64,000 nt of DNA from an uncultured delta proteobacterium (GTDB lineage: Bacteria; Desulfobacterota; Binatia; Binatales; Binataceae), in assembly GCA_963808235.1 (NCBI GenBank), contig CAWEEQ010000002.1:128001-192000 (forward strand), written 5' to 3'. Below the pieces are notes generated by a model, which was not told where the DNA came from, searched no databases, and saw only the letters and a list, made by a program, of their open reading frames with translations. The position numbers were made by a program, and so were the translations under genes. Positions 2,657 to 61,866 of the stretch are shown here, piece after piece. Within the stretch, counting starts at the first letter, position 1. Each line of letters opens with the position of its first letter.

Positions 2657-3241
2657 TTGGGCGCTACAGCAGTAACATCAATGGACTTCAGCAGAATGTC
2701 CGCGGTGGAGAAGCAGATTCTCATTTTCAGCTTTTATCGCGACGCCGAACTCAGAGGCGCCCGCTTACTTTTCAATATCATTGGTCATCTCGACGACGCT
2801 GATTCGCAGGTAAAGATGTCCAAGCATCTGTCGGACGAGACCCGTCATGCATGGCTGTGGACCAAGCGCATCGCGGACCTCGGCGGATGCCCGGTTCATA
2901 TCGACGACGGCTATCAGCGCCGGCTCGGGCTTCGCACCGGAGTGCCAAAGACGATCGTCGACCTGCTCGCGTTGACGGTGGTGGTCGAAGAGCGCGCGCA
3001 AAGCCGCTACAACGCGCACATGGCGCTCCCGAACGTGGACAAGGAAACCATGGAAGTCCTCCACGCGGTTACCGAGGACGAGACCTGGCACTTGTCGTGG
3101 ATCGAAAAGAAGATGCGCGAGATCGCCAAAGAGCAGGGCAAGGAAGATCACGCCGACCAGGCGCTCGATCGGTATCGCAAGATCGATCGCGAAGTTTACG
3201 CGACGCTGGCCGCTGACGAAGCGGAGTTGATGCGTTCATAA
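2657..3241 (+). CDS. Ferritin-like di-iron domain protein
   Basis: Two E..ExxH repeats (DETRH, DETWH); GGAGG 8 nt before the TTG start. Confidence 0.85.
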   Translation: MGATAVTSMDFSRMSAVEKQILIFSFYRDAELRGARLLFNIIGHLDDADSQVKMSKHLSDETRHAWLWTKRIADLGGCPVHIDDGYQRRLGLRTGVPKTIVDLLALTVVVEERAQSRYNAHMALPNVDKETMEVLHAVTEDETWHLSWIEKKMREIAKEQGKEDHADQALDRYRKIDREVYATLAADEAELMRS

Positions 3242-3262
3242 ATAACGATCAACAGATTCAGA

Positions 3263-4075
3263 TTGTCGCTTCGTAACTTCAATTACCTCAACTGCGGCGC
3301 CCTGGTGGCCGCAGTTTTTCTATTCAGCGCCGCGATCGCTCAGGCCGGATGGGTCAAAGGCGAGTTCACCTCCGGCGGCAAGCCGGTCGAAGAATATCAC
3401 TGCGCGCCGTCCGGAAGCGGACCGCATCCCGCGGTCGTCATCCTGCACGGTGCGTCGGGGCAGAAAGAAGTCGCAAACGACTCGTTCGAAAAGATGTGCG
3501 GTCAGCTCGCGGACCATGGCTACTACGCGGAATTTATCGAGTACTACAGCCAGACCGAGGCGGTTGGCCCTGAGAGTCCGCTGGAGATGCGAAAATATTT
3601 CCCGGTATGGCTGGACGAGATCCAATCGGGCATCGACGCGCTCGACAAGAATCCCGCCGTCGATCCGCATCGCGTAGCGCTGATGGGATTTTCGCTTGGC
3701 GCCTTTCTCTCCCTCTCGACAGGCGCGCTCGCTCCGGATCAGATCGCGGCAATCGTTGAGTACTACGGCGGACTTCCCCCGAGGCTCAGAAGCGGCGCCA
3801 AACAGATGCCGCCGACGCTGATTCTGCACGGCGACAAGGACGCGCTGGTCAACGTGTCACAGGCGCACGAGCTCGACGAGCTTCTGACCGCGGCAAATCG
3901 CCCGCACGAGATGCACATCTACGAGGGCGCGAATCACGCATTCAATTTCGCCGAGCTGCCGTTCTGGTACAACGCCGAAGACGCACAGGACGCATGGAAT
4001 CGGAGTCTGAAGTTCCTCGCGGCGAATCTGAAAAATCCGGATTCGAAGACCGCCGCGAGCGCGGCATCCAAATAG
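3263..4075 (+). CDS. Secreted dienelactone hydrolase-family alpha/beta hydrolase
   Basis: Signal peptide, GFSLG nucleophile elbow, HGDKD, HAF. Confidence 0.88.
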   Translation: MSLRNFNYLNCGALVAAVFLFSAAIAQAGWVKGEFTSGGKPVEEYHCAPSGSGPHPAVVILHGASGQKEVANDSFEKMCGQLADHGYYAEFIEYYSQTEAVGPESPLEMRKYFPVWLDEIQSGIDALDKNPAVDPHRVALMGFSLGAFLSLSTGALAPDQIAAIVEYYGGLPPRLRSGAKQMPPTLILHGDKDALVNVSQAHELDELLTAANRPHEMHIYEGANHAFNFAELPFWYNAEDAQDAWNRSLKFLAANLKNPDSKTAASAASK

Positions 4076-50640: not shown

Positions 50641-51294
50641 ATGGGTGACGTAACACTCTCGTTCGACAACGGTCCCAATCCCGAGGTCACCCCGCTGGTA
50701 CTCGACGTGCTCGCGCGCCGCGGGGTGAAGGCGTCGTTCTTCGTCCTTGGGATGCATCTCGAGTCGCGCGAGCGGATGAAACTTGCCGAGCGCGCGGCGG
50801 CCGAAGGGCATCGCGTCGGCAATCACTCATTCACCCATCGCGTGCCGCTCGGAATCGATCCCGCTCCCGATGCGGTCGAGCGGGAGATTGCCGCGACTGA
50901 GCGCGTCCTGGGCACGCTCGCGCAAAATCCGAAACTGTTTCGTCCGTTCGGCGGGGGCGGAAAGATAGGGCCTCATCTGCTCAGCCCGGCCGCGGTCGAG
51001 CACCTTACAGCCAACCATTACACCTGCGTGCTCTGGAACAGCGTGCCCGAGGATTGGATCGATCAAGATGCGTGGGTCGCGCGCGCGATTGCCGACGCCC
51101 GGTCGCGGAGCCACACTCTGGTCGTGATGCACGACATCCTGCCTCGCGCGATGAGCCATCTTGACGGATTCATCGGCGCGCTGCTGGACGAGGGCCATCG
51201 TATCGCCGATGAGTTCCCCCGCGACTGCGTTCCGATCGAGGGCGGCGAGATCGTCCGCGACATCTCGGGCTTCGTATCGCGCGGCGCCGCTTAG
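50641..51294 (+). CDS. Polysaccharide deacetylase family protein
   Basis: LSFDNGP, GNHSFTH, FRPFG, VMHD. Confidence 0.9.
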   Translation: MGDVTLSFDNGPNPEVTPLVLDVLARRGVKASFFVLGMHLESRERMKLAERAAAEGHRVGNHSFTHRVPLGIDPAPDAVEREIAATERVLGTLAQNPKLFRPFGGGGKIGPHLLSPAAVEHLTANHYTCVLWNSVPEDWIDQDAWVARAIADARSRSHTLVVMHDILPRAMSHLDGFIGALLDEGHRIADEFPRDCVPIEGGEIVRDISGFVSRGAA

Positions 51295-52069
51295 GAAATC
51301 TCGCTCGAGAACCGAATCGTCTTCTTCTTCAATCCTTCGAGCACCACCTCGACCCCGCCGCTCCGCATCATCCATTCCAGCCGATGGTCGCGGTATTGCC
51401 GTGCGAACGCTCCCGATTCCAAAACCTGCGGGAGCGAGCCCATCGATCCCGCGAATTGCTGCGCCGCCTCGAGCGTTTTGCGCACGCTCGGCCGCTCCTC
51501 GACGCGCGCCAGCCATCCGGCAAGCCGAGTGCCCGCCTTCGGCTCGACGCCCCAGACCACCGAGCCGCGTACGTGCGGGAAAACGCTTAAGTCGCCGTAT
51601 CCGAACGATGCGCCGTTGAAAAATTGCGCCGTGCCGAGTTCGCGTTCGAGCCACGCGTGCACACCCGCGGTCTGTTCGACTGCTTTTGCTTCGATTCGCT
51701 TCGCCGGCTCGCCGCTGACGCGTTTCCACGCCCGCACTTCCATCAAGCCCCAGTTGATCGCCTCGTAGTAAGTGTCGCAGACGTTTCGATCATTCTGACC
51801 CGCGCCCGCTCTCGCGGCGTTGGCGGCAACATCGCGGGCGCCGGCCATTTCTCTTCGATGTAATCGAGGATGATCGTCGAGTCGAAAATCGCAAAGCCGT
51901 CGTCGATCAGCGCGGGCACCTCGAGGCGCGGATTGGTTTTCGCAAACTCGGTCGGCGCACCGCTGAACGCGTCAGGCACTTCGACTTCGAAGGCGACGTT
52001 CTTTTCGTAAAGCGCGATCTTGACCTTTTGCACATACGGCGAGAACGGATGCTCATAAAGTTTGGGCAT
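51291..52069 (-). pseudogene. Glutathione S-transferase with a 1-bp frameshift near 51785
   Basis: The N-half (SPYVQKV, NPRLEVPAL, DSTII..RARVRMIE) and the C-half (VCDTYYEAINWG..GYGDL) are in different frames. Confidence 0.85.
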
Positions 52070-52135
52070 GACGACAACCTCCGGCGCCAATGATCAGTCT
52101 TTGCGGAACATAGCAGGTCTGTTAGCCTTTTGAGT

Positions 52136-52645
52136 ATGAGATCGTGGTTGCGGAGAGTATGGAGCCTTAACGGCGCCTTGGCTTTTGTCGTCGTCGTGGC
52201 GATTGCCTCATCGGCGTTCGCGTTCGATATCGGAAAGATCCTCAACAACAAACCCAAAGAGCCCGACCAGTTCGCGATCATCCGCGTCGATCGGCTCGCG
52301 TCACTGATGGCCGATTCGAACTCACACGTTAACATCTACGATGCGAACGGATGGGGCCTGCGCTCGCGTACCGGCGTGATTCCCGGAGCGCATCTTCTAA
52401 CCAGCGACGACAAGTATGATGTAGCCACCGAGTTGCCGTCCGACAAAAGCGCGAAGCTCGTCTTCTATTGCGCCGACTTGCATTGAACTGCGTCTCATGA
52501 AGCCGCCCGGCGGGCGGAAGCAGCGGGTTACAGCGACGTGAGCGTCATGAGCGACGGAATCCAGGGATGGAAGCAAGCGGGCAAGCAGGTTGACTATCCC
52601 GAGCTTGGCGCAAAGCAAGACGAACCAAAAAAACAGGACGATTGA
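52136..52645 (+). CDS. Secreted rhodanese-domain protein with in-frame UGA at 52484 (probable selenocysteine)
   Basis: IYDAN, GVIPGA, VFYCADLH-UGA-TASHEAARRAEAAGYSDVSVMSDGIQGWKQAG; the domain is completed only by read-through. Confidence 0.85.
52488..52523 (+). promoter_or_regulatory. Candidate bacterial SECIS element
   Basis: CCGCCC-GGC-GGGCGG hairpin 16 nt after the UGA, G-led loop, lower CTGC/GCAG pairing. Confidence 0.6.
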
Positions 52646-52697
52646 AGTTGTTGTCTGATCCTCGCGCGGGCTGACGGCGATTACATATAGTGTCGGC

Positions 52698-54497
52698 GTG
52701 CCGCGCGATACTTCAGAGCCTACCGCCGCGATCGAATCCACAGTTCCGCGCGAACTGACTCCGCGCAGCATTGGACTGGGAATCGCACTCGCGCTTGTTC
52801 TTGGCGCGGCGAATGCCTACCTGGGGCTCTACGCAGGGTTGACGGTTTCGGCGAGCATCCCGGCGGCCGTCATCTCGATGGCTATTTTGCGGATGCTGGG
52901 CGGGTCGACGATCCTCGAGAACAACGTGGTGCAGACGATCGCGTCGGCGGGAGAGGCCGTCGCGGCCGGCGCGATCTTCACTTTTCCCGCGCTCGTCATC
53001 CTGGGCGGAGTGAAGACGCTGCCCTACGTCGAAGTGACCGCGCTATGCGTCGTCGGCGCGACGATGGGCTCGTTGCTGGTGGTGTTTCTGCGCCGGGCAT
53101 ATATCGTAGAGGAGCGTTTGCCATTTCCGGAGGGCGTCGCGTGCGCGCAAGTACTTCGCGCCGGCGATGCGTCCGCGAACGTTCGCCCGCTCGTGCTAGG
53201 TGGCATCGTCTCGTCGTTATTGAAGGCACTTCAGGATCTGATCGGAGTCATTCCCGGCGCAGTGTCGGGTGCGCGATGGATCGGAACCGCAGCGTTTGCG
53301 GGCTCGATCGATATTTCCGCGGCGCTGCTCGGCGTCGGCTATATCATTGGCATCCGGATCGCGACGCTGGTTTTCGCGGGCGGCGCATTCGCATGGCTCA
53401 TCGCTATTCCATTTCTGACTGCGTCGCATCCGCAACTCGCAGCGCGCGATGCTGCGACCACTGCCTCCCAGTTGTGGAGCAGCCAGGTGCGTTACCTCGG
53501 CGTCGGTGCGATGCTCACCGGCGGCGTGGTCACGCTGTGGCGCTTGCGGATCCGAATCGGCGCCGCGATTGCCGATAGCATCCGCGTTGTCCGCTCGACT
53601 CAAGTCGTCGCCACCGCGCGCGAGGACACCGATCTTTCGCCGCGCGCTGTGCTGACCGCGGTTGCGCTCTGCGTGCCCGTGATCTTCGCGATCTGCCTCG
53701 GCCTCAGCGGGCAGATTGCACTCAGCGCGGCGCTGGCGATCCTGCTCACGCTGATTTGCTTCTTTGCGACTTCGATCGCCGGTTATCTGACCGGAATTGT
53801 CGGCGCGTCCAACAACCCGGTCTCCGGCGTAACGGTGATCGTGCTACTTGCGGTGGCGCTGTTTCTGAAATTCGTCGGCGTGTCGCAAACCGTCGGACCG
53901 CAACTCGCGATTCTTTCCGGCGCGATCGTATGCACGGCGGCTGCGATGGCCGGTGATTCGACGCACGACCTCGCAACTGGCTTCCACGTTGGCGCGACGC
54001 CGCGCTCGCTCGAGATTGGCGTGCTCGTCGGCGCGATCGCGTCATCGTTCCTGATGGCGCCGATTTTGAATCTTCTAATCGCCGGCTACGGAATCGCAGG
54101 CACCGCGACCGCGCGCGCCGGCGCGCTGGCGGCGCCGCAGGCATTTCTGATGGCGAAAGTTACTGAAGGCGTTTTTCACGGCGGCTTGCCGCTCGGAACG
54201 ATCGCGACGGGCGCGGCACTCGCCGCGATCCTGGGATTTACCGACCGCTATCTCGAGCGCGCCGGCTCCAGTTGGCGTACGCCGATCATGCCCGTCGCGA
54301 TCGGTTTGTATCTGCCGTTCGGATTAGGCGTAACGATTTTTCTCGGCGCGCTGGTTCATTCGATCTTTGGATCCGAAAACGCCGACGAAAGCGGTCCGGG
54401 AATTTTGCTCGCGGCCGGCCTGGTCGCGGGCGAAGCACTGATGGGTGTGGCGAGCGGCGCGCTTGTGACCGCGGGAATCCGGCTGCCGCTCTTTTGA
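52698..54497 (+). CDS. OPT family oligopeptide transporter
   Basis: NAYLGLYAGLTVSASIP, ENN..QT, LPFPEG, SNNPVSG, APQA. Confidence 0.93.
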   Translation: MPRDTSEPTAAIESTVPRELTPRSIGLGIALALVLGAANAYLGLYAGLTVSASIPAAVISMAILRMLGGSTILENNVVQTIASAGEAVAAGAIFTFPALVILGGVKTLPYVEVTALCVVGATMGSLLVVFLRRAYIVEERLPFPEGVACAQVLRAGDASANVRPLVLGGIVSSLLKALQDLIGVIPGAVSGARWIGTAAFAGSIDISAALLGVGYIIGIRIATLVFAGGAFAWLIAIPFLTASHPQLAARDAATTASQLWSSQVRYLGVGAMLTGGVVTLWRLRIRIGAAIADSIRVVRSTQVVATAREDTDLSPRAVLTAVALCVPVIFAICLGLSGQIALSAALAILLTLICFFATSIAGYLTGIVGASNNPVSGVTVIVLLAVALFLKFVGVSQTVGPQLAILSGAIVCTAAAMAGDSTHDLATGFHVGATPRSLEIGVLVGAIASSFLMAPILNLLIAGYGIAGTATARAGALAAPQAFLMAKVTEGVFHGGLPLGTIATGAALAAILGFTDRYLERAGSSWRTPIMPVAIGLYLPFGLGVTIFLGALVHSIFGSENADESGPGILLAAGLVAGEALMGVASGALVTAGIRLPLF

Positions 54498-54787
54498 TTG
54501 ACGGGAGATCCACTATGCCGCGCTTTGCGTTTTCGTCGCGGCGCAGTTTTTCTCCCCGTCGATCTTTCTTGCATCGGCACAAACTCCGGTGTCGCAGCTC
54601 TCGGTGCGCGAGACCAGCGTGGTCCGCTTCGTACCGTCGGTGCCGTCGGGTGAAGCGTGCGAGGGCTCGTGCTGGATCTGGAGCAGCAGCGGCGGAGAAA
54701 GTTCCGGTTAAGACGATCTGGAAGTGAAAGAGTTCACGTAAAAGCCGGTCGCGCGTCGGCGCGCGGTTGCGCGACGGGACGACCTTT

Positions 54788-55645
54788 TCATTGCGCGATC
54801 CAAATAGGCGCGCTTGCGAAAAGATGGTCGACGATCCCGATATGATAGGCGAGAAAGAGGCCGAAGCCGAAGCTTAGAAGTCCCGAGCCGGTCACGAGTC
54901 CCTGGTGCAGCCACGAAACTCTTCGCGACGCTACCACGAACGGCGCGGCGATCGTGGCAGTAATCAGTGCCATGCCGATTATCGTTCCGACGCAGAAAAT
55001 CGCGAGATAAATAGTCGCCCACAACGGTTGTGGAATCGCGCTCAACACGAGCAGCGCGATCGCCGCGCTGCCGGCGAGCCCGTGAACGAGCCCCACTCCG
55101 AATGATTTGAGCAGTGGCCGGTGCGATCCGAATGTCGGCAGCGTCTTGGAGTCGATGCGATGATCCCGGTGAGTTACCGTGTGCGCATCTTCGCCGCCGT
55201 CGATATGAACGTGAGGATGCGAATGCTCCGTTTCGCCATGAGTGTGAAGATGCGCATGGACTATCAGATGTTCGTGCAGATGTTCGTCGGAGTCTTTGTT
55301 ACGCGACGAAGATCCAGTCACCCGCGCCGCGAATTTACGGATCAAGCTTGTTGCCGCTCCGAACCCGAGCAGTATCAAAACAATCGCAACCGCGAATTCC
55401 ATCGCGAGTCCGAGGCGAGTCGGAATCGCAATTTTGAAAACGATAATCGCGGCGCCCACCAGCATCACCGTGAGCGTGTGGCCAAGACCCCATACGACAC
55501 CGATCCGAGCGGCCGTCATCAGGCGCCGCTCGCGGCTCAGGATCGTCGTGACCGCGATGACATGATCGGGATCGGTCGCATGGCGCATACCGAGCACCAG
55601 TCCTAGGACCGCAATTCCAAGTGGCGCGGCATGAGCGGGATTCAT
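54788..55645 (-). CDS. Nickel/cobalt transporter (NiCoT/UreH-like)
   Basis: GMRHATDPDH, WGLGH, His-rich loop, GLVHGLAGS. Confidence 0.88.
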   Translation of the reverse strand: MNPAHAAPLGIAVLGLVLGMRHATDPDHVIAVTTILSRERRLMTAARIGVVWGLGHTLTVMLVGAAIIVFKIAIPTRLGLAMEFAVAIVLILLGFGAATSLIRKFAARVTGSSSRNKDSDEHLHEHLIVHAHLHTHGETEHSHPHVHIDGGEDAHTVTHRDHRIDSKTLPTFGSHRPLLKSFGVGLVHGLAGSAAIALLVLSAIPQPLWATIYLAIFCVGTIIGMALITATIAAPFVVASRRVSWLHQGLVTGSGLLSFGFGLFLAYHIGIVDHLFASAPIWIAQ

Positions 55646-55677
55646 CACATGAATTTGCGGATTTCGAAGGTCTAATT

Positions 55678-55721
55678 TGGTGGACGCACCTGGACTCGAA
55701 CCAGGGACCTCTTGCATGTGA
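55678..55721 (-). mobile_element. 3' half of tRNA-Val(CAC); att junction at the left end of a genomic island
   Basis: Minus strand TCACATGCAAGAGGTCCCTGGTTCGAGTCCAGGTGCGTCCACCA; no D arm or 5' acceptor strand upstream. Confidence 0.85.
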
Positions 55722-55868
55722 GTTGTGCAACCTTGCGTAAACGCCAGAATAGTCTGATATCGCTCGATAGCGCTACAAGGTAGCGAAAGCGCTGTGGCAG
55801 AAGGGTTTTCTGTGCACGACTAAAGTGCGACCATCAGTTACAGAGTACTTTCGATTGATCTCCGGTTG

Positions 55869-55909
55869 GGGCACAGAATCGGGCACAGAGGGCACAAAAT
55901 TGGGCACAG
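55869..55909. repeat. Four GGGCACA direct repeats; tyrosine-integrase arm-type sites
   Basis: GGGCACAGAATCGGGCACAGAGGGCACAAAATTGGGCACAG, about 150 bp inside the att core. Confidence 0.75.
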
Positions 55910-55928
55910 CAAATCGGACGCCGGCGCG

Positions 55929-56810
55929 TCACATCCACGAAGCCTTCTGCGGATCCCAGCGGCCGGTCGCGCGGCCGGCCAGCACAGGATCGAGCAGCGC
56001 CGCCGCTTGCGCATAGCCCCGACGCAGGTCCGGATCGAGACCAACTTCGTTGGCCAGCTTCCGGTATGGGACCGCCCATTCGGGCGGCGGTGGCGGGAAC
56101 CGATCCGGAAGACCATGTTGACGCCTTCCCTCAAAAACTCCTTCGAGCGCACTGCGAAGGCGAGCGGCGTCCAGCACCATGAGTTGTTTCACGAGGACAA
56201 GATCGACGAGATCTTTTGCGCGACTGCTCCGGCGACCTTGGCCGTAGGTTTTTGTGTATGCGTGGACCTTCTCCGCGATGTGTTGCTCAAGCGGCAGGAC
56301 TGGCACTTCGATCGGTTCGATGTCGGCGAACGCCAGTAGATCCTGTCCGCGAATCGGTTCGGGCTTCCATTTCAGCGAGTCTGAAAACCCGATATCGACC
56401 ATGACTTCCTCGAACCGCCTGCCTGCGAGTTCGGCTCGGACGCGGTATCTCACCGCGAGACCTTCAACCTCTTTACCCGGCGCTCCGACCTTTTCTATGT
56501 CGAAGGTAAAGTAGTCGTCGATCTCGACAGCTTGGGCGGCTATGAAGTCAGCGGTGGCCGCCGTCTCGTCGTCGCGGTGAAAGATATCCATGTCCTTCGT
56601 GGTCCGCGTCCGTTCTCCCATCCGGAAGTCGAGGGCCAGCGCTCCCTTAAGAACCCAGCGGCCTGGCGCGGCGATCGCGAGACGAAAGAGAAGGCGGTCA
56701 AAGACGACGGCCTTTCGCAGCCGGACAAGGGAAATGCCCTTGTCACGCGATCGCGTGAGCAGACGCTGCTCAAGTGCTTGACGAAATGCGGCTCCGCTTT
56801 GGTACTTCAT
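55929..56810 (-). CDS. Type IV TA nucleotidyltransferase toxin, AbiEii/AbiGii family
   Basis: VLKGALAL, RTTKDMD, AEKVHA, SRAKDLVD; start overlaps the antitoxin stop. Confidence 0.9.
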   Translation of the reverse strand: MKYQSGAAFRQALEQRLLTRSRDKGISLVRLRKAVVFDRLLFRLAIAAPGRWVLKGALALDFRMGERTRTTKDMDIFHRDDETAATADFIAAQAVEIDDYFTFDIEKVGAPGKEVEGLAVRYRVRAELAGRRFEEVMVDIGFSDSLKWKPEPIRGQDLLAFADIEPIEVPVLPLEQHIAEKVHAYTKTYGQGRRSSRAKDLVDLVLVKQLMVLDAARLRSALEGVFEGRRQHGLPDRFPPPPPEWAVPYRKLANEVGLDPDLRRGYAQAAALLDPVLAGRATGRWDPQKASWM

Positions 56811-57427
56811 TTGCGGTGTCGCGCCTCGAGAACTTGTCGAACAAGGCGCTCGACTCGACCTCCACGCGTCTTCGCAACCCCGAGGAGTTTTGATTCGGTT
56901 GCCATGCCTCGGTCGAGTGCCTGGCCGACTGCGGCCATTATCTGCTCCGGGGCGGTTCCCGCTTGGGCCGCGTCGATGATCGAGCGCGCCGGTGCGGTCA
57001 CTCGAACTCCGTCGCGCACCACGACGTCGGACTTGGCAAGGCGCCGCGTTGTCGTGTGTATCGCGACGCCCAGAGATGCGAAGCGATAGCGCCTCGCTCG
57101 GGGGACGGTAAGGTGAACGACCTCGGGCACCACGTCGGAAAGCCCGAGGATGTCGAGCGCGCTTTCATGCGATACAACGGTGTTCTCTCTTCCCGACCCA
57201 AGCCACGCCGCGATCACGTCTTCGCGGGGTGAACTCGGGTATTCGCGAATGCGGTAGAGGCCCTGACGGACTCGGGAAAAGCGGCCTGATTTGGCATGAT
57301 GCGCCAGTAGCGATTTACTAAAGCCGCACGAATGCGCCTGAGCGGCAGTGAAATATCCCCCCTGCTCAGAGGCGATTTCGAAGAGCTGTGCGCGCCGCGA
57401 CTTTGATTCGAGATCATTGTCACGCAT
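56807..57427 (-). CDS. Type IV TA antitoxin, AbiEi family
   Basis: QGGYFTAAQA, RVRQGLYR, VVSHESAL, HLTVP, VTAPARSIID. Confidence 0.9.
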   Translation of the reverse strand: MRDNDLESKSRRAQLFEIASEQGGYFTAAQAHSCGFSKSLLAHHAKSGRFSRVRQGLYRIREYPSSPREDVIAAWLGSGRENTVVSHESALDILGLSDVVPEVVHLTVPRARRYRFASLGVAIHTTTRRLAKSDVVVRDGVRVTAPARSIIDAAQAGTAPEQIMAAVGQALDRGMATESKLLGVAKTRGGRVERLVRQVLEARHRK

Positions 57428-57434
57428 AGGTCAA

Positions 57435-57462
57435 ATGATACTTGACTTTATCATGACATCAA
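57435..57462 (-). promoter_or_regulatory. sigma70-type promoter of the abiE operon (leaderless), overlapped by an imperfect inverted repeat
   Basis: TTGATG-16-TATCAT-7-ATG; TTGA...TCAA repeat at 57442-57462. Confidence 0.6.
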
Positions 57463-57511
57463 ATACTGCAACAGATTGTTCAGGCTTCGGAGCTTGTTTC
57501 TCGAAAATGAA

Positions 57512-57532
57512 TGTTCCACGTTACGTGGAACA
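57512..57532. repeat. 21-bp palindrome resembling parS with a 5-bp central insertion
   Basis: TGTTCCACGT-T-ACGTGGAACA. Confidence 0.7.
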
Positions 57533-57679
57533 GCAGGTTTCGCGCATCGCAGCGGCGCATTCGCCGCTCGACGAATGACGGCGACGACTCCAGAGGGTAT
57601 TGAACGACATCAATCCTTACGCCGATTCACTTCTATTCATGGCAACCTGAATTAGGCCTCAACTAGGACAGGAAAAGCG

Positions 57680-57871
57680 ATTACTGAAACATGTAAGTTA
57701 TGCGGTGAGGAATCGACACCGTGGGAATACATCGACGTGCTCGACGGTCACGTGTGCGCGGACTGCAGCTACCGGCTGGCTGCGCTGTTCGCGAATGATG
57801 GGTCGCTATCACGGGCCGACCTGCTTGCGGTGTACGGAACCGAAGCCCGGAAGAAGGCGGACTTGCCATGA
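57680..57871 (+). CDS. Small CxxC...CxxC zinc-finger protein with ATT start (or decayed start)
   Basis: (M)TETCKLCGEESTPWEYIDVLDGHVCADCSYRLAALF...; AGGA 6 nt upstream; not in the ORF track. Confidence 0.5.
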   Translation: MTETCKLCGEESTPWEYIDVLDGHVCADCSYRLAALFANDGSLSRADLLAVYGTEARKKADLP

Positions 57872-57939
57872 GGCGGTTGGAGATGCTCGCTTTGATCTGA
57901 TCTCACTTCAATGTGGCCGCGCTCACGTGAGCGCGGAAA

Positions 57940-58014
57940 CGAAATGGCATACGCAGAGGACTTAAAATCCTCTGGAGCGAAAGCTCCGTGCGGGTTCGAG
58001 TCCCGCCCCCGGCA
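57940..58014 (+). pseudogene. tRNA-Leu(TAA) lacking its first ~10 nt (att-type fragment)
   Basis: D loop, GAGGA-CTTAAAA-TCCTC, GGAGC-GAAA-GCTCC variable arm, T arm and 3' CCCCGGCA present; the 5' GCCGGGG is absent. Confidence 0.8.
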
Positions 58015-58072
58015 ATTGAAAATTAAGGGTTTTCTGGCGAGTCGTCGCTGCAAGCGGGACTAGTCTGCGCCG

Positions 58073-58096
58073 TTGACAGCCACGTTTGACAGCCAC
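58073..58096. repeat. Tandem TTGACAGCCAC x2; second arm-type site array
   Basis: TTGACAGCCAC-GT-TTGACAGCCAC, about 60 bp after the tRNA-Leu 3' end. Confidence 0.7.
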
Positions 58097-58134
58097 GGGT
58101 TCGCGGATTCTGTTGCTAGACTAGGTTCGCAACG

Positions 58135-58367
58135 TAGGGGTCGAGAGTTCAAATCCCCTCTGCTCCACACCTCAGTCTCCAGGGTTTCGGACATGGCGGA
58201 GAATCGATCGAAATCCGCGCGTGTGCGCGCGAATTGCGCACATGTGCGGACCCGGAGAATATCTCTGTCGCCCAGAATTGGCCTAATCTGGCGAAACCTA
58301 TCCCGGCGCGATTAGCCTAGGTCCGCGGATCATCGCCATGCATTCGCCTTTTCTTTTTCAGCGCTCC
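58135..58367 (+). repeat. ~230-bp direct repeat, copy 1, headed by a tRNA-Ala-like 3' end
   Basis: Colinear with 63601-63824, e.g. GCGCACATGTGCGGACCCGGAGAAT, AATCTGGCGAAACCTATC, CTAGGTCCGCGGATCATCGCCATG, TTTTTCAGCGCTCC. Confidence 0.92.
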
Positions 58368-58530
58368 GCCAGCTTAGAATCAGGAATCTCCAAATGCACG
58401 GGTCGCGGGTCGAGTTGGTTTTTAGGGTCAAAGGTAAGCTCCTCGCCACTGACCTGCCGCCCGAATTTCTCGGAACGCGCAACCAATGGCAGCCAATCCA
58501 AGTGCGCAACCTTGACGTATGTATAGACGG
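58358..58530 (-). pseudogene. Possible 3' remnant of an unidentified gene
   Basis: YVKVAHLDWLPLVARSEKFGRQVSGEELTFDPKNQLDPRPVHLEIP reads as protein-like; no credible start. Confidence 0.3.
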
Positions 58531-58656
58531 TAGTGTTAAGTGGCAGGGACTGACTTGTCTGTGGCTTAGTTTCCGAAGACAATCTGCCACCTCTTGCAGA
58601 GATGCGCTCAGGTAATGCCGATGCCGCGTGGGCAAGGCGGTTTCGCGGGAGGGTTC

Positions 58657-59124
58657 GTGCGTCTGAAAAAAGGGTTTCTGCTGATCTTATTCTTAGCCTT
58701 GACATCCTGCGCTTCCAACAACTCCACTCCGACGCCGCCGAGATCCCAAAGCAACGCCGGACAGGCTGTATCAAAAAAAGACACGGAAACAATCCAGTCG
58801 GCATCGGGCGAGAAGTGCATCATAGATGAGAAGAGAATCTGCGAAGAGGGGGCGGCGGGAGTAGCGAACGATCCCTTCGGCGCTGACAACAGCGAGGACA
58901 TACGTGAACGAATCGCCTCGGGTGATGATACGGGCGGGTCGAAAACCTACACCTCGACGCTGCGCTATGGAGTCTCTCTTCTTCAAGGGGAGCGACCGGT
59001 GAATTTGTTTTGCGGCATGAACATGCACCAACGCGCGTTTGCTTACGGTCAATTGTCTACGAGCGGCACCCCCACCGATACAGATGTCGCAAAGCTGCGC
59101 GCCGGGGGGTACTGCTCCAACTAA
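58657..59124 (+). CDS. Hypothetical lipoprotein with four further Cys
   Basis: SD GGGAGG before GTG; lipobox LTSC. Confidence 0.75.
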   Translation: MRLKKGFLLILFLALTSCASNNSTPTPPRSQSNAGQAVSKKDTETIQSASGEKCIIDEKRICEEGAAGVANDPFGADNSEDIRERIASGDDTGGSKTYTSTLRYGVSLLQGERPVNLFCGMNMHQRAFAYGQLSTSGTPTDTDVAKLRAGGYCSN

Positions 59125-59142
59125 GACTGGAGGAGGCCAGCT

Positions 59143-61866
59143 ATGCCGACAACGATCCGCAGGATCACAATCGGCAACAATCGGGCTTGGAGATCGATGC
59201 GTACGAATATCCGCCTGGGCTGCGCGGTCTCAATGCTCACATTCTGTGTTTTGGCTTCGTCCACAGTTCGATCCGAAAGCAATCCGGTTCCTATTCCCTC
59301 TCCCGCGGGAAGTCGTGACCAGGCGGTTGACAAGACCGAAGCAGCGCTTCGCGACGAGCTGCGCACGCTAGAAGCGCAAAATCCCAATAGTATTGAGGTC
59401 ACCAAAGATCTCGATCTCCTTGCTTGGTACTATTGGAATCACGGCCGGTTCTCCGACGCTGAACCATTGTTGATACAATCGCTAGCAATCAAGGAGAAGT
59501 CACTGTCGGCAGATGATTCTGCGATCGAGGAGAATATAGATAGGCTTGGGGAACTCTACGCCTGGGAGGGGCGATTCTCGGAAGCGGAGCGACTCCTAAA
59601 TCGCGCGCTCCAGAGCCCGGGTGAAGAAGATGTGGCGAACCCGTGGTTGGCGGGCCGCGCGCACATTTTTCTCGGCACCGTATACCTCGAGGAGGGAAAG
59701 CTGCAAGAGGCGGAAACGTTGCTCAAGCAGGGCCTCGAACTCCGGCTTAGAACCACCACACGAGGCACCGGAATCGAAATTACCTACGATCTACGAAGCT
59801 TGGCCGAATTGTATTGCGAGGAAGGGCGTTTCGCAGAAGCGGAGCCTTTGGGATCCCAAAGTATGAAGCTGAGCGAGCCCAATAGTCTCATATATGCGTA
59901 CGCGCTTGACACGCTCGCTGACGCCTATTACGGCGAGGGCCGGTATGCCGACGCAGAACGTCTATATTCCGAATCGGGTCCAATCCTCCTGCGTCAAATG
60001 GGAGACGCTCACGTCTACTACGAACAGAATTTGGGCTCGCTCGGACTTACGCTCGCGAAGGAAGGAAAAGTCCAGCCGGCGCGGGACAGCTTTCGCAAAT
60101 CATGGGCGGTCAATCTAAATACCTGGCATGCGGCGACGCAGTCGGGCAGCGAGTCTTTGCGTTTTCTCAGGAACAAAAGCGATCAATATGTCCGAGGTTA
60201 TCTGGAATTGCTGGCCGCGATCGCGCGCCATCCAGAAATGGACCCGGGCGGTGCGTCACCGGCACCCGAGGCGTTCATGGTCGCAGAACAAGCGCGCCGG
60301 GGTATCACCGATCTTGCACTGGTCAAAGCGGCGGTGCGGCTTGCAGTCGCCGACCCGGATGCCGGCGAGGCTGCCGCCGAAGTGCAGCGCCTCAGCGAGC
60401 GGCGGGCTGGGATGGCAATGCAGCTTTCGACGCAATTCGGCGCTTCGAAAGAAAATCAGCAAGACGCAGCTAAAGTTCTCGCAGAATCGCAACAGCTTGA
60501 CCATGACCTGGAGATCGCAAACCAGCGACTGATTCAAGTCTTTCCAAAATATGGCGAGTTAGCGACGCCGTTGCCTATCGACGTAGACGGCGTACAACGA
60601 GTACTGCGCGCCGACGAGGCGCTGGTCAGTTACTACACGCTCAACGACCGGCTACTGGCGTGGTGCGTGCGACCCGGTCATCCGCTGGCATATCGCGATA
60701 CCGAAGTTAAGCGCGCAGATCTGATGGCGATGGTCGCGCAGGTTCGCGAGAGCCTTCGTCCCGACAAACCGTTCGACTTCGTTGACTCATACGCGCTCTA
60801 CCAGTTGCTTATAGCTCCGTTGAAAGATGAGCTTGCCAGCACCAAGTTACTTATCATCGTACCGGACGGGGTAACTCTGCCGATTCCTTTCGCCGCGCTG
60901 GTCACTGACAATACGGGCGATGCGTTTGCGGCGTTGGCACGAGATTATAAGCAAGGTCTCGCGCCATCGCCCGCTGAGTTGAAGGACAACTATCCCCGTA
61001 TTGCCTGGTTCGCAAAGAGAAGTATGAGCATTAGTCTCCTACCTACGGCCACTTCTCTCCGACTACTCAGAAATCGGGTCGAAGCGAGCAACACCGCGAA
61101 CGCGTCATCGGCCAAGGCTTACCCCTTCGTCGGAATCGGCGATCCGTTGCTGAACGGCAAGGGCGAAGAGCGTGGTAGCTCGATGGTGGCGACGCGAGGC
61201 GCCGAAGCAATCGACGCGGTGCGGAATCTGCCGAGACTTCCCGGTTCGCGCGAGGAGCTAATGGCTGAAGCTAAGGCGCTCGATGCCAATCCTCAAGAGT
61301 CGCTCTTCATGGAAGAACGGGCGACCCGGCCGCAGGTGCTGGCGCTGAGCAAAGATCGTTTGCGCGACGCAAAGGTAATCTCGTTTGCGACACACGCGCT
61401 CATAGGTGGCGAGATAAAGGGAGTCATGGAACCGTCTCTGGTGCTCACACCACCCTCGCAGCCGAGCACAGACGATGACGGATTGCTTACGATGGACGAC
61501 GTGATGGGATTCAAGTTGGTCGCCGACGAGTGGGTAATCCTCTCTGCCTGCAACACGGCGGCTCCTGACGGAAGTGGCGAAGGACTGTCAGGCCTGACCC
61601 GCGCGTTCTTTTACGCGGGCACTCCATCGCTGCTGGTCTCGCAATGGGCCGTTGATGACGCAGCGACCGATCAGCTGATGACCGCGGTGTTCACGGCTTA
61701 CGGAAGCAGCGGCGGAGTCTCGCGCTCAACGGCGCTGCAGGGAGCGATGCTCAAGCTGATGGACATGCCGCGCACTGACCCGACACACGCCTACTTCGCC
61801 CATCCGTTCGCCTGGGCATCATTCGTCGTAGTCGGCGAAGGCGGCGGTTCTCAACCGACCAAGTGA
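59143..61866 (+). CDS. TPR-CHAT (caspase-like) protease with a predicted N-terminal signal sequence
   Basis: TPR units (GRFSDAEPL, GRFSEAE, GRFAEAE, GRYADAE), IVPDG..PFAAL, FATHA (His), LSACNT (Cys), GEGLSGLTRAFFYAG, HPFAWASF. Confidence 0.93.
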   Translation: MPTTIRRITIGNNRAWRSMRTNIRLGCAVSMLTFCVLASSTVRSESNPVPIPSPAGSRDQAVDKTEAALRDELRTLEAQNPNSIEVTKDLDLLAWYYWNHGRFSDAEPLLIQSLAIKEKSLSADDSAIEENIDRLGELYAWEGRFSEAERLLNRALQSPGEEDVANPWLAGRAHIFLGTVYLEEGKLQEAETLLKQGLELRLRTTTRGTGIEITYDLRSLAELYCEEGRFAEAEPLGSQSMKLSEPNSLIYAYALDTLADAYYGEGRYADAERLYSESGPILLRQMGDAHVYYEQNLGSLGLTLAKEGKVQPARDSFRKSWAVNLNTWHAATQSGSESLRFLRNKSDQYVRGYLELLAAIARHPEMDPGGASPAPEAFMVAEQARRGITDLALVKAAVRLAVADPDAGEAAAEVQRLSERRAGMAMQLSTQFGASKENQQDAAKVLAESQQLDHDLEIANQRLIQVFPKYGELATPLPIDVDGVQRVLRADEALVSYYTLNDRLLAWCVRPGHPLAYRDTEVKRADLMAMVAQVRESLRPDKPFDFVDSYALYQLLIAPLKDELASTKLLIIVPDGVTLPIPFAALVTDNTGDAFAALARDYKQGLAPSPAELKDNYPRIAWFAKRSMSISLLPTATSLRLLRNRVEASNTANASSAKAYPFVGIGDPLLNGKGEERGSSMVATRGAEAIDAVRNLPRLPGSREELMAEAKALDANPQESLFMEERATRPQVLALSKDRLRDAKVISFATHALIGGEIKGVMEPSLVLTPPSQPSTDDDGLLTMDDVMGFKLVADEWVILSACNTAAPDGSGEGLSGLTRAFFYAGTPSLLVSQWAVDDAATDQLMTAVFTAYGSSGGVSRSTALQGAMLKLMDMPRTDPTHAYFAHPFAWASFVVVGEGGGSQPTK

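Follow-up and report, generated by a model that had tools for sequence, protein, structure and literature searches.

Selenoproteins of the rhodanese type have been predicted since 2004–2007 in Geobacter, in marine metagenomes and in symbiotic Deltaproteobacteria (PMC1088965, PMC1976440 and PMC9312934). A 2026 review tabulates five rhodanese-like forms with the motifs UxxS, UxxG, CxU (NF041203, ‘LYCAU’), UxxG and UxxxxU (TsoB, NF045694), and treats the pairing of Cys and selenocysteine (Sec) among homologues as the standard signature of a selenoprotein (PMC13188914). A different Sec site in the same domain is counted as a different subfamily (PMC9312934). The gene described here, from an uncultured soil bacterium (Candidatus Binatus), lies in a 64-kb window, by which is meant the whole stretch of 64,000 nucleotides that was analysed. 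With the five tabulated forms it shares the PF00581 domain, a Sec placed in or next to the active-site loop, the logic of prediction from Cys/Sec pairs together with a SECIS, and an origin in deltaproteobacteria-like lineages. It differs from them in keeping Cys at the catalytic position and having Sec only at position +5 (C-x4-U), a form absent from the table in the review (PMC13188914). As judged from its sequence, the product is very probably a selenoprotein, of a known kind but in a new form, with Sec at +5, the catalytic Cys retained, a putative export signal, a link to an OPT-family transporter gene and a place in Binataceae. The statement in the original prediction that Sec-containing rhodaneses are reported in Deltaproteobacteria agrees with PMC1976440. 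No occurrence of the motif ‘CxxxxU’ and no report linking Binatota with Sec were found in the literature searched, and the deep-Sep paper makes no mention of rhodanese.

The open reading frame (ORF) of the rhodanese gene starts at ATG 52136, with an alternative TTG at 52130 that would give an MSM... N-terminus as in homologues. It reads ...KLVFYCADLH up to a TGA five codons past Cys112 (Table 1), beyond which the frame stays open for 52 codons, begins TASHEAARRAEAAGYSDVSVMSDGIQGWKQAG and closes at a second TGA; the full extension is TASHEAARRAEAAGYSDVSVMSDGIQGWKQAGKQVDYPELGAKQDEPKKQDD. The read-through product was matched to the Pfam Rhodanese family (PF00581) over residues 53–148 with 37.8 bits against a gathering score of 22.2 (E = 2.7e-9), and because this match spans the UGA, the rhodanese domain is split in two by it. 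The Pfam score, a predicted rhodanese fold and a Cys that opens the active-site loop together identify a rhodanese homology domain. The original prediction had placed the end of the called ORF at this UGA, five residues past a Cys in the catalytic position, had held that the following 52 in-frame codons complete the rhodanese fold, and had noted a GC-rich hairpin with a G-led loop starting 16 nt further on. The coordinates proved exact, the frame is open, and the hairpin was located. Our reading, which rests on sequence comparison and which we regard as probable, is that decoding of the UGA as Sec yields a single-domain rhodanese that is exported.

Table 1. Features of the rhodanese gene and its OPT neighbour, in window coordinates
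Feature	Position	Strand	Description
Predicted signal peptide, residues 1–29	52136..52222	+	Basic n-region with RR, hydrophobic core, A-F-A
Candidate read-through selenoprotein CDS	52136..52645	+	169 residues, Sec at 117; ends at TGA 52643-52645
Cys112 (TGC)	52469..52471	+	Catalytic-position cysteine, at the end of strand 107–111
In-frame UGA, probably read as Sec117	52484..52486	+	Last residue of the six-residue loop C-A-D-L-H-U, before helix 118–129
SECIS-like hairpin	52503..52517	+	CCGCCC-GGC-GGGCGG: 6-bp stem CCGCCC/GGGCGG, loop GGC
OPT-family oligopeptide transporter gene	52698..54497	+	52 nt 3’ of the rhodanese stop; Pfam OPT, E = 6e-82
Terminator-like hairpin and T-run	54525..54546	+	Just past the OPT stop codon; weak evidence

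Searching a set of 5.8 billion proteins gave 382 homologues that were scored, and the figures that follow refer to the best 120 of these 382. Exactly one residue before the UGA column, 109/120 come to an end, 107 of them in ...YCADLH, one in ...LR and one in ...LL. The other 11 are full length (152–168 aa), and Cys occupies the UGA column in every one of them (11/11). The truncated entries are named ‘hypothetical protein’ at their source (NCBI), and several are from Candidatus Binatus. The expectation that annotation pipelines would cut the protein short is realized in these 109 entries.

At the DNA level, a scan of genome contigs matched 49 stretches, 35 of which were confirmed, giving 34 distinct loci that derive nearly all from Candidatus Binatus, Binataceae or ‘uncultured delta proteobacterium’ MAGs. 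The 34 loci and the window together form 35 sources with 36 orthologous genes, in which the codon at this column is TGA in 33, TGC in two and TGT in one. Nucleotide identity between pairs of the 33 Sec-type genes is 65–95%, and they were therefore taken to represent independent genomes. The in-frame UGA is thus conserved among orthologues, with conserved coding sequence on both sides of it. Two of the three Cys-type genes, in loci L006 and L026, stand alone at the equivalent position. The third lies in L027, where a Cys-type gene (2760-3242) is found directly upstream of a Sec-type copy (3308-3790) and both are upstream of the OPT gene; the tandem copies may be a backup pair for changing selenium availability.

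The Cys that pairs with the UGA extends well beyond close relatives. A family profile made from 40 sequences and compared with a 50%-identity library found 3287 representatives at E <= 0.001, 780 of them at E <= 1e-10. Among the best 150 of the 3287, Cys was found at column 112 in 149/150 and at column 117, the Sec column, in 141/150, and FYC-x4-C therefore marks out a large family. Of the nine without Cys at column 117, seven end precisely four residues past the first Cys, one continues differently and one is unaligned there. Cys homologues thus align Cys with the UGA in 11/11 database proteins, 3/3 orthologous genes and 141/150 family representatives, never Trp, and the original placement of Sec at the second Cys position of a YCxxxxC loop is supported. 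By this comparison Sec apparently substitutes for the second Cys of the family in several lineages. Four of the seven that stop early are distant, non-Binatus-like entries (P0184, P0212, P0235 and P0242); they end in ...YCADIH, YCHDQL, YCANTL and YCANWR, respectively, four residues past the first Cys, and their sequences suggest further, possibly independent, Sec forms in other lineages.

The relation between Sec and Cys forms was examined in a quick tree whose 50 rows comprised 33 Sec forms, 11 Cys forms and an outgroup of 6; P0003, P0009 and P0012, three of the 11 full-length Cys forms from the database, were left out. At least four Sec/Cys changes are needed on this tree, and Sec forms surround the main Cys clade (9 rows, SH-aLRT 98). 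No direction of change is claimed, because support is lacking at most forks and very long branches lead to the outgroup.

Several further features accompany the Sec-type genes. The base 3’ of the UGA is A in 33/33, though the codon it opens may specify Thr, Ser (as AGC) or Met, and residues 115–116 are almost always Leu-His in Sec forms, with PK, PQ, TQ, LQ, QQ or TR in Cys forms. The invariant A after the UGA and the Leu-His before it may reflect selection on context for Sec decoding. The MAGs with loci L027, L029 (labelled Acidiferrales) and L030 (labelled Betaproteobacteria) share this gene and its synteny with OPT with the Binatus loci, at 69–73% protein identity to the window, which points to mis-binning, wrong labels or lateral transfer.

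The SECIS-like hairpin begins after a gap of 16 nt from the UGA, and its loop lies 22 nt from the UGA. The bSECIS model, as given in the 2026 review, allows an apical loop of 3–9 nt, a stem of 4–16 bp and a spacing of 16–37 nt between UGA and loop, asks for at least one G in the first two loop positions, usually then G/U, and sets MFE <= -7.5 kcal/mol (PMC13188914). Folded alone, the 15-nt hairpin has an energy of -10.3 kcal/mol, and it lies inside every one of these limits, for loop, stem, loop G, spacing and MFE. Fold energy alone was not counted as evidence, because the whole 77-nt stretch folds no better than shuffles (z = -0.76).

More telling is how little the hairpin varies. Its 5’ arm is identical in 31/33 Sec-type genes and its 3’ arm in 32/33; of the three stem changes seen, two retain a G-U pair, one of them (in L003) at the cost of an Arg-to-Trp replacement. 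The loop is GGC in 26 of the 33 genes and GUC in 7. Zero third-position variation occurs in only three of the 61 codons with at least four-fold degeneracy, namely +7, +9 and +10, all in the stem, and when the 61 are ranked by variability, all four stem codons come within the lowest 7 (hypergeometric 6.7e-5). Each of the three Cys-type genes carries synonymous differences in the stem codons. The frozen synonymous sites, which are confined to the hairpin, fit the published bacterial SECIS model, and the proposal of a SECIS-type hairpin just downstream of the UGA gains from this as well as from agreement with the published constraints. RNAalifold found compensatory double changes in 0 of 12 predicted pairs among the Sec-type genes, because the stem is nearly invariant. 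The peptide here is A-A-R-R-A, in a GC-rich genome, where Ala and Arg codons are inherently self-complementary, and the Cys-type gene of L006 is still able to form a 5-bp hairpin. Rfam gave no SECIS-type or other meaningful family over 52400-52700, and nothing relevant at gathering score over the whole window.

Machinery for Sec was sought in the window and the 34 loci, amounting to 693,402 bases. ARAGORN called no tRNA-Sec in the 64-kb window or the 34 loci, a Pfam scan of the 54 window ORFs revealed nothing of SelA, SelB or SelD type, and tblastn with the E. coli K-12 SelA, SelB and SelD gave no match in the window or the 34 loci. This result, which speaks for the bases searched, and the ability of hairpins to stimulate read-through would accord with a UGA that is recoded as something other than Sec, either by near-cognate insertion of Trp, Cys or Arg stimulated by the hairpin or by reassignment of the codon in the lineage. 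Such recoding is nevertheless improbable. TGA ends 24 of the 39 Pfam-supported ORFs of the window (TAG ends 10 and TAA 5) and the rhodanese gene itself, and there is therefore no general reassignment of UGA; the residue aligned with the UGA in the family is Cys in the 141 of the best 150 given above and never Trp; and the loop obeys the G[G/U] rule of a SECIS. A GC3-filtered scan of the window for other UGA-joined ORFs produced 34 candidates, which were rejected because they resemble the artefacts that high GC content creates in other frames; the same filter failed to recover the rhodanese gene itself.

Gene callers and the NCBI annotation treat the UGA as a genuine stop, which would leave a 116-residue N-terminal fragment as the product and the remainder untranslated or made separately. 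The variation downstream of the UGA speaks against this. Among the 33 Sec-type genes, mean entropies for the first, second and third codon positions (H1/H2/H3) were 0.21/0.17/0.78 bits over codons +12..+38, against 0.27/0.17/0.82 bits over codons -70..-1 upstream of the UGA, and third-position variation with conserved amino acids therefore continues in frame past the UGA, in phase with the upstream ORF. By this measure the region 3’ of the UGA is under protein-coding (purifying) selection. Without residues 118–148 neither the Pfam domain nor the predicted fold is complete, the first start codon in frame after the UGA is that of Met138, and the Cys-type homologues are continuous proteins. Termination at the UGA is accordingly considered very improbable. 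The view that the gene is a pseudogene, its TGA having arisen by nonsense mutation or sequencing error, deserves next to no credence: although the neighbouring GST-like gene has a 1-nt frameshift relative to an intact orthologue, and the assembly or strain therefore holds at least one broken gene, the same TGA recurs in 33 of the 36 orthologues from different genomes, which rules out an error or strain-specific mutation, it is implied by the 109 of the best 120 database proteins that are truncated there, the downstream frame is under purifying selection, and the 65–95% pairwise identity argues against the loci being copies of a single assembly.

Translation through the UGA as Sec would complete an active-site loop of the usual rhodanese length. 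An AlphaFold model calculated from the 40-sequence alignment (mean pLDDT 74.7, pTM 0.63, core mostly 80–94) shows a strand at residues 107–111, a loop at 112–117 and a helix at 118–129, and Cys112 is invariant in the aligned close homologues. Foldseek returned 30 matches to the PDB at E <= 0.001, and those listed are rhodanese-fold proteins, among them Pseudomonas thiosulfate sulfurtransferase, the periplasmic Wolinella polysulfide-sulfur transferase Sud, persulfide dioxygenase-rhodanese fusions, YgaP and GlpE. A HMMER alignment to YgaP sets Cys112 against the loop cysteine and the Sec column against an Arg at loop position +5. This alignment and the structure matches therefore put Sec117 at the end of the six-residue loop that is canonical for rhodaneses. 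A loop of six residues is typical of the sulfur-transferring members, not the phosphatase-type members, of the rhodanese group. In bovine rhodanese the corresponding position is taken by Thr252, and the persulfide is in contact with its side chain.

The N-terminus resembles a signal peptide by hydropathy and conservation, in line with the earlier description of the protein as signal-peptide-bearing. Its hydrophobic core reaches means of up to 3.2 on the Kyte-Doolittle scale over 11 residues, and the A-F-A at its end precedes a nearly invariant F30-D31. An RR pair occurs within the first 20 residues in 32 of the 40 aligned sequences, a motif that hints at export of the rhodanese by the Tat rather than the Sec route. 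Across the FYC-x4-C family the N-termini are of the signal-peptide or lipoprotein type.

The gene that follows the rhodanese was assigned to an OPT family by TIGR00733, with 488.3 bits against a cutoff of 182.5 over profile positions 1–588 of 589. It is found downstream on the same strand in 34/34 loci; in 23/34 no more than 400 nt separate the Sec codon from the start of its tblastn match, and the largest distance is 2053 nt. No terminator-like site was found between the rhodanese and OPT genes. Terminator-like sites in the region number 4, against 3.8 expected by chance from shuffles. On this arrangement the OPT gene is probably an operon partner that is co-transcribed with the rhodanese gene. 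Upstream on the same strand, an MBL-fold hydrolase is present in 30/34 loci and a polysaccharide deacetylase in 29/34; a divergent GST-like gene is found in 12/34. Because all the loci are close relatives, and the synteny may reflect shared ancestry, its conservation is only suggestive of a functional link with the OPT transporter.

Two further parts of the window were noted in the course of these comparisons. The GST-like gene (51294-52090, - strand) is split into two ORFs that do not share a frame, one for the N-domain (51746-52090) and one for the C-domain (51294-51848). Its intact orthologue in L007 reads ...RVRMIEDVCDTYYEAINWG, relative to which one base is apparently missing near 51783. 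From the sequence, the split gene is either a pseudogene or the result of an assembly indel.

Right after the OPT gene, synteny with all 34 loci stops (window 54791-61863); the genes in this part include a NicO-like gene, an AbiEii/AbiEi toxin-antitoxin pair and a TPR-CHAT protein, each with a match in 0/34 loci. The same part contains a tRNA-like element (57917-58013, + strand) that scores 30.4 bits on the general tRNA model, and is not called by ARAGORN. Its anticodon is UAA (Leu), its variable arm is long, and both the T-arm and the 3’ acceptor strand are intact; a palindromic hairpin of 8 bp at 57917-57936 stands in place of the 5’ part. A tRNA-Sec considered at 57931-58013 was rejected on its UAA anticodon, its broken acceptor stem and a score of 31.9 bits against a gathering score of 47. 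The element resembles the kind of 3’ tRNA-Leu remnant that is found at integration sites, and together with the loss of synteny it suggests a strain-specific inserted island at 54791-61863.

Comparison established the conservation of the UGA, its pairing with Cys, the constraint on the coding sequence past it and on the hairpin, the fold, the position of the loop and the synteny, and from these we infer a course of events that runs from Sec insertion and export to Se-S chemistry, a substrate and a link to OPT function. The hairpin, with its G[G/U]C loop, would act as a bacterial SECIS and recruit SelB with Sec-tRNA(Sec), so that translation runs on for 52 codons and completes the fold. Sec117 would take the place of the second cysteine in the family-wide FYC-x4-C motif. 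Following export, Cys112 could accept sulfane sulfur (or selenium) as a persulfide, and the selenol of Sec117 could attack or resolve this persulfide to give a Cys112-Sec117 selenenylsulfide. Loop 112–117 would in this way serve as a periplasmic centre of two-electron redox or transfer chemistry, and the rhodanese would probably work with the co-transcribed OPT transporter.

A more specific role can be imagined, although we consider it unlikely to be correct as stated. The Cys112-Sec117 loop could be a periplasmic selenenylsulfide redox module dedicated to the adjacent OPT transporter, stripping or reducing sulfane sulfur or selenium carried on peptides or glutathione. Its cargo might then be persulfides and selenotrisulfides that are handled before or after transport. 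Were this role to hold, bacterial OPT transporters would have a first defined partner, the uncultured phylum Binatota would be shown to decode Sec, and the tandem Cys and Sec paralogues of L027 would be a backup pair for selenium availability.

Decoding of the UGA as Sec would have consequences of its own. About nine in ten database entries for a widespread soil-bacterial gene are cut at the active site and named hypothetical, an annotation that the Sec reading would repair. It would also add a sixth placement of Sec in a rhodanese, at loop position +5 with the catalytic Cys kept, and this placement points to two-residue redox chemistry rather than a simple Cys-to-Sec replacement. It further implies Sec decoding in Binataceae. 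With natural Cys and Sec versions and a conserved OPT partner, the system appears tractable for a test of what a second chalcogen does in the rhodanese loop. For the selenoprotein field the advance is incremental, well over a hundred predicted families being already listed.

Set beside the known systems, the best NCBIfam match is the rhodanese domain of TsoB (NF045694), whose tabulated UxxxxU motif has the same four-residue spacing, a comparison made by motif only. The protein falls outside that family, with 42.7 bits against a cutoff of 805, a match confined to profile positions 96–170 of 572, and one Sec. TsoB is a DsbD-like fusion, whereas the rhodanese here stands alone; a search for DsbD-fused or longer homologues found none, which is weak evidence. 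That TsoB carries a DsbD-like electron-transfer module as a fusion favours a redox role for the Cys/Sec pair. The protein likewise falls short of NF041203 (28.7 bits against a cutoff of 115), in which Sec lies two residues past Cys rather than five, and of TIGR03865, the PQQ-dependent catabolism-associated CXXCW motif protein (37.7 bits against a cutoff of 128.05). None of 22 FYC-x4-C family members tested reaches any NCBIfam cutoff, and the family is therefore regarded as being without an assigned function.

YgaP, GlpE and PspE of E. coli and Sud of Wolinella share the same fold, in which the catalytic Cys opens a six-residue loop that is followed by a helix. Sud and PspE are periplasmic proteins. 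Sequence similarity to this group is low (E 0.007 to 7.6e-5), and at loop position +5, where Cys or Sec stands in the present family, its members have Arg, Ser or Thr. The nearest counterparts are the Cys-type exported FYC-x4-C rhodaneses (the 780 representatives at E <= 1e-10), which have the same domain, the same kinds of N-termini and the same two-cysteine loop, with Cys in place of Sec, and whose close paralogues occupy the same locus.
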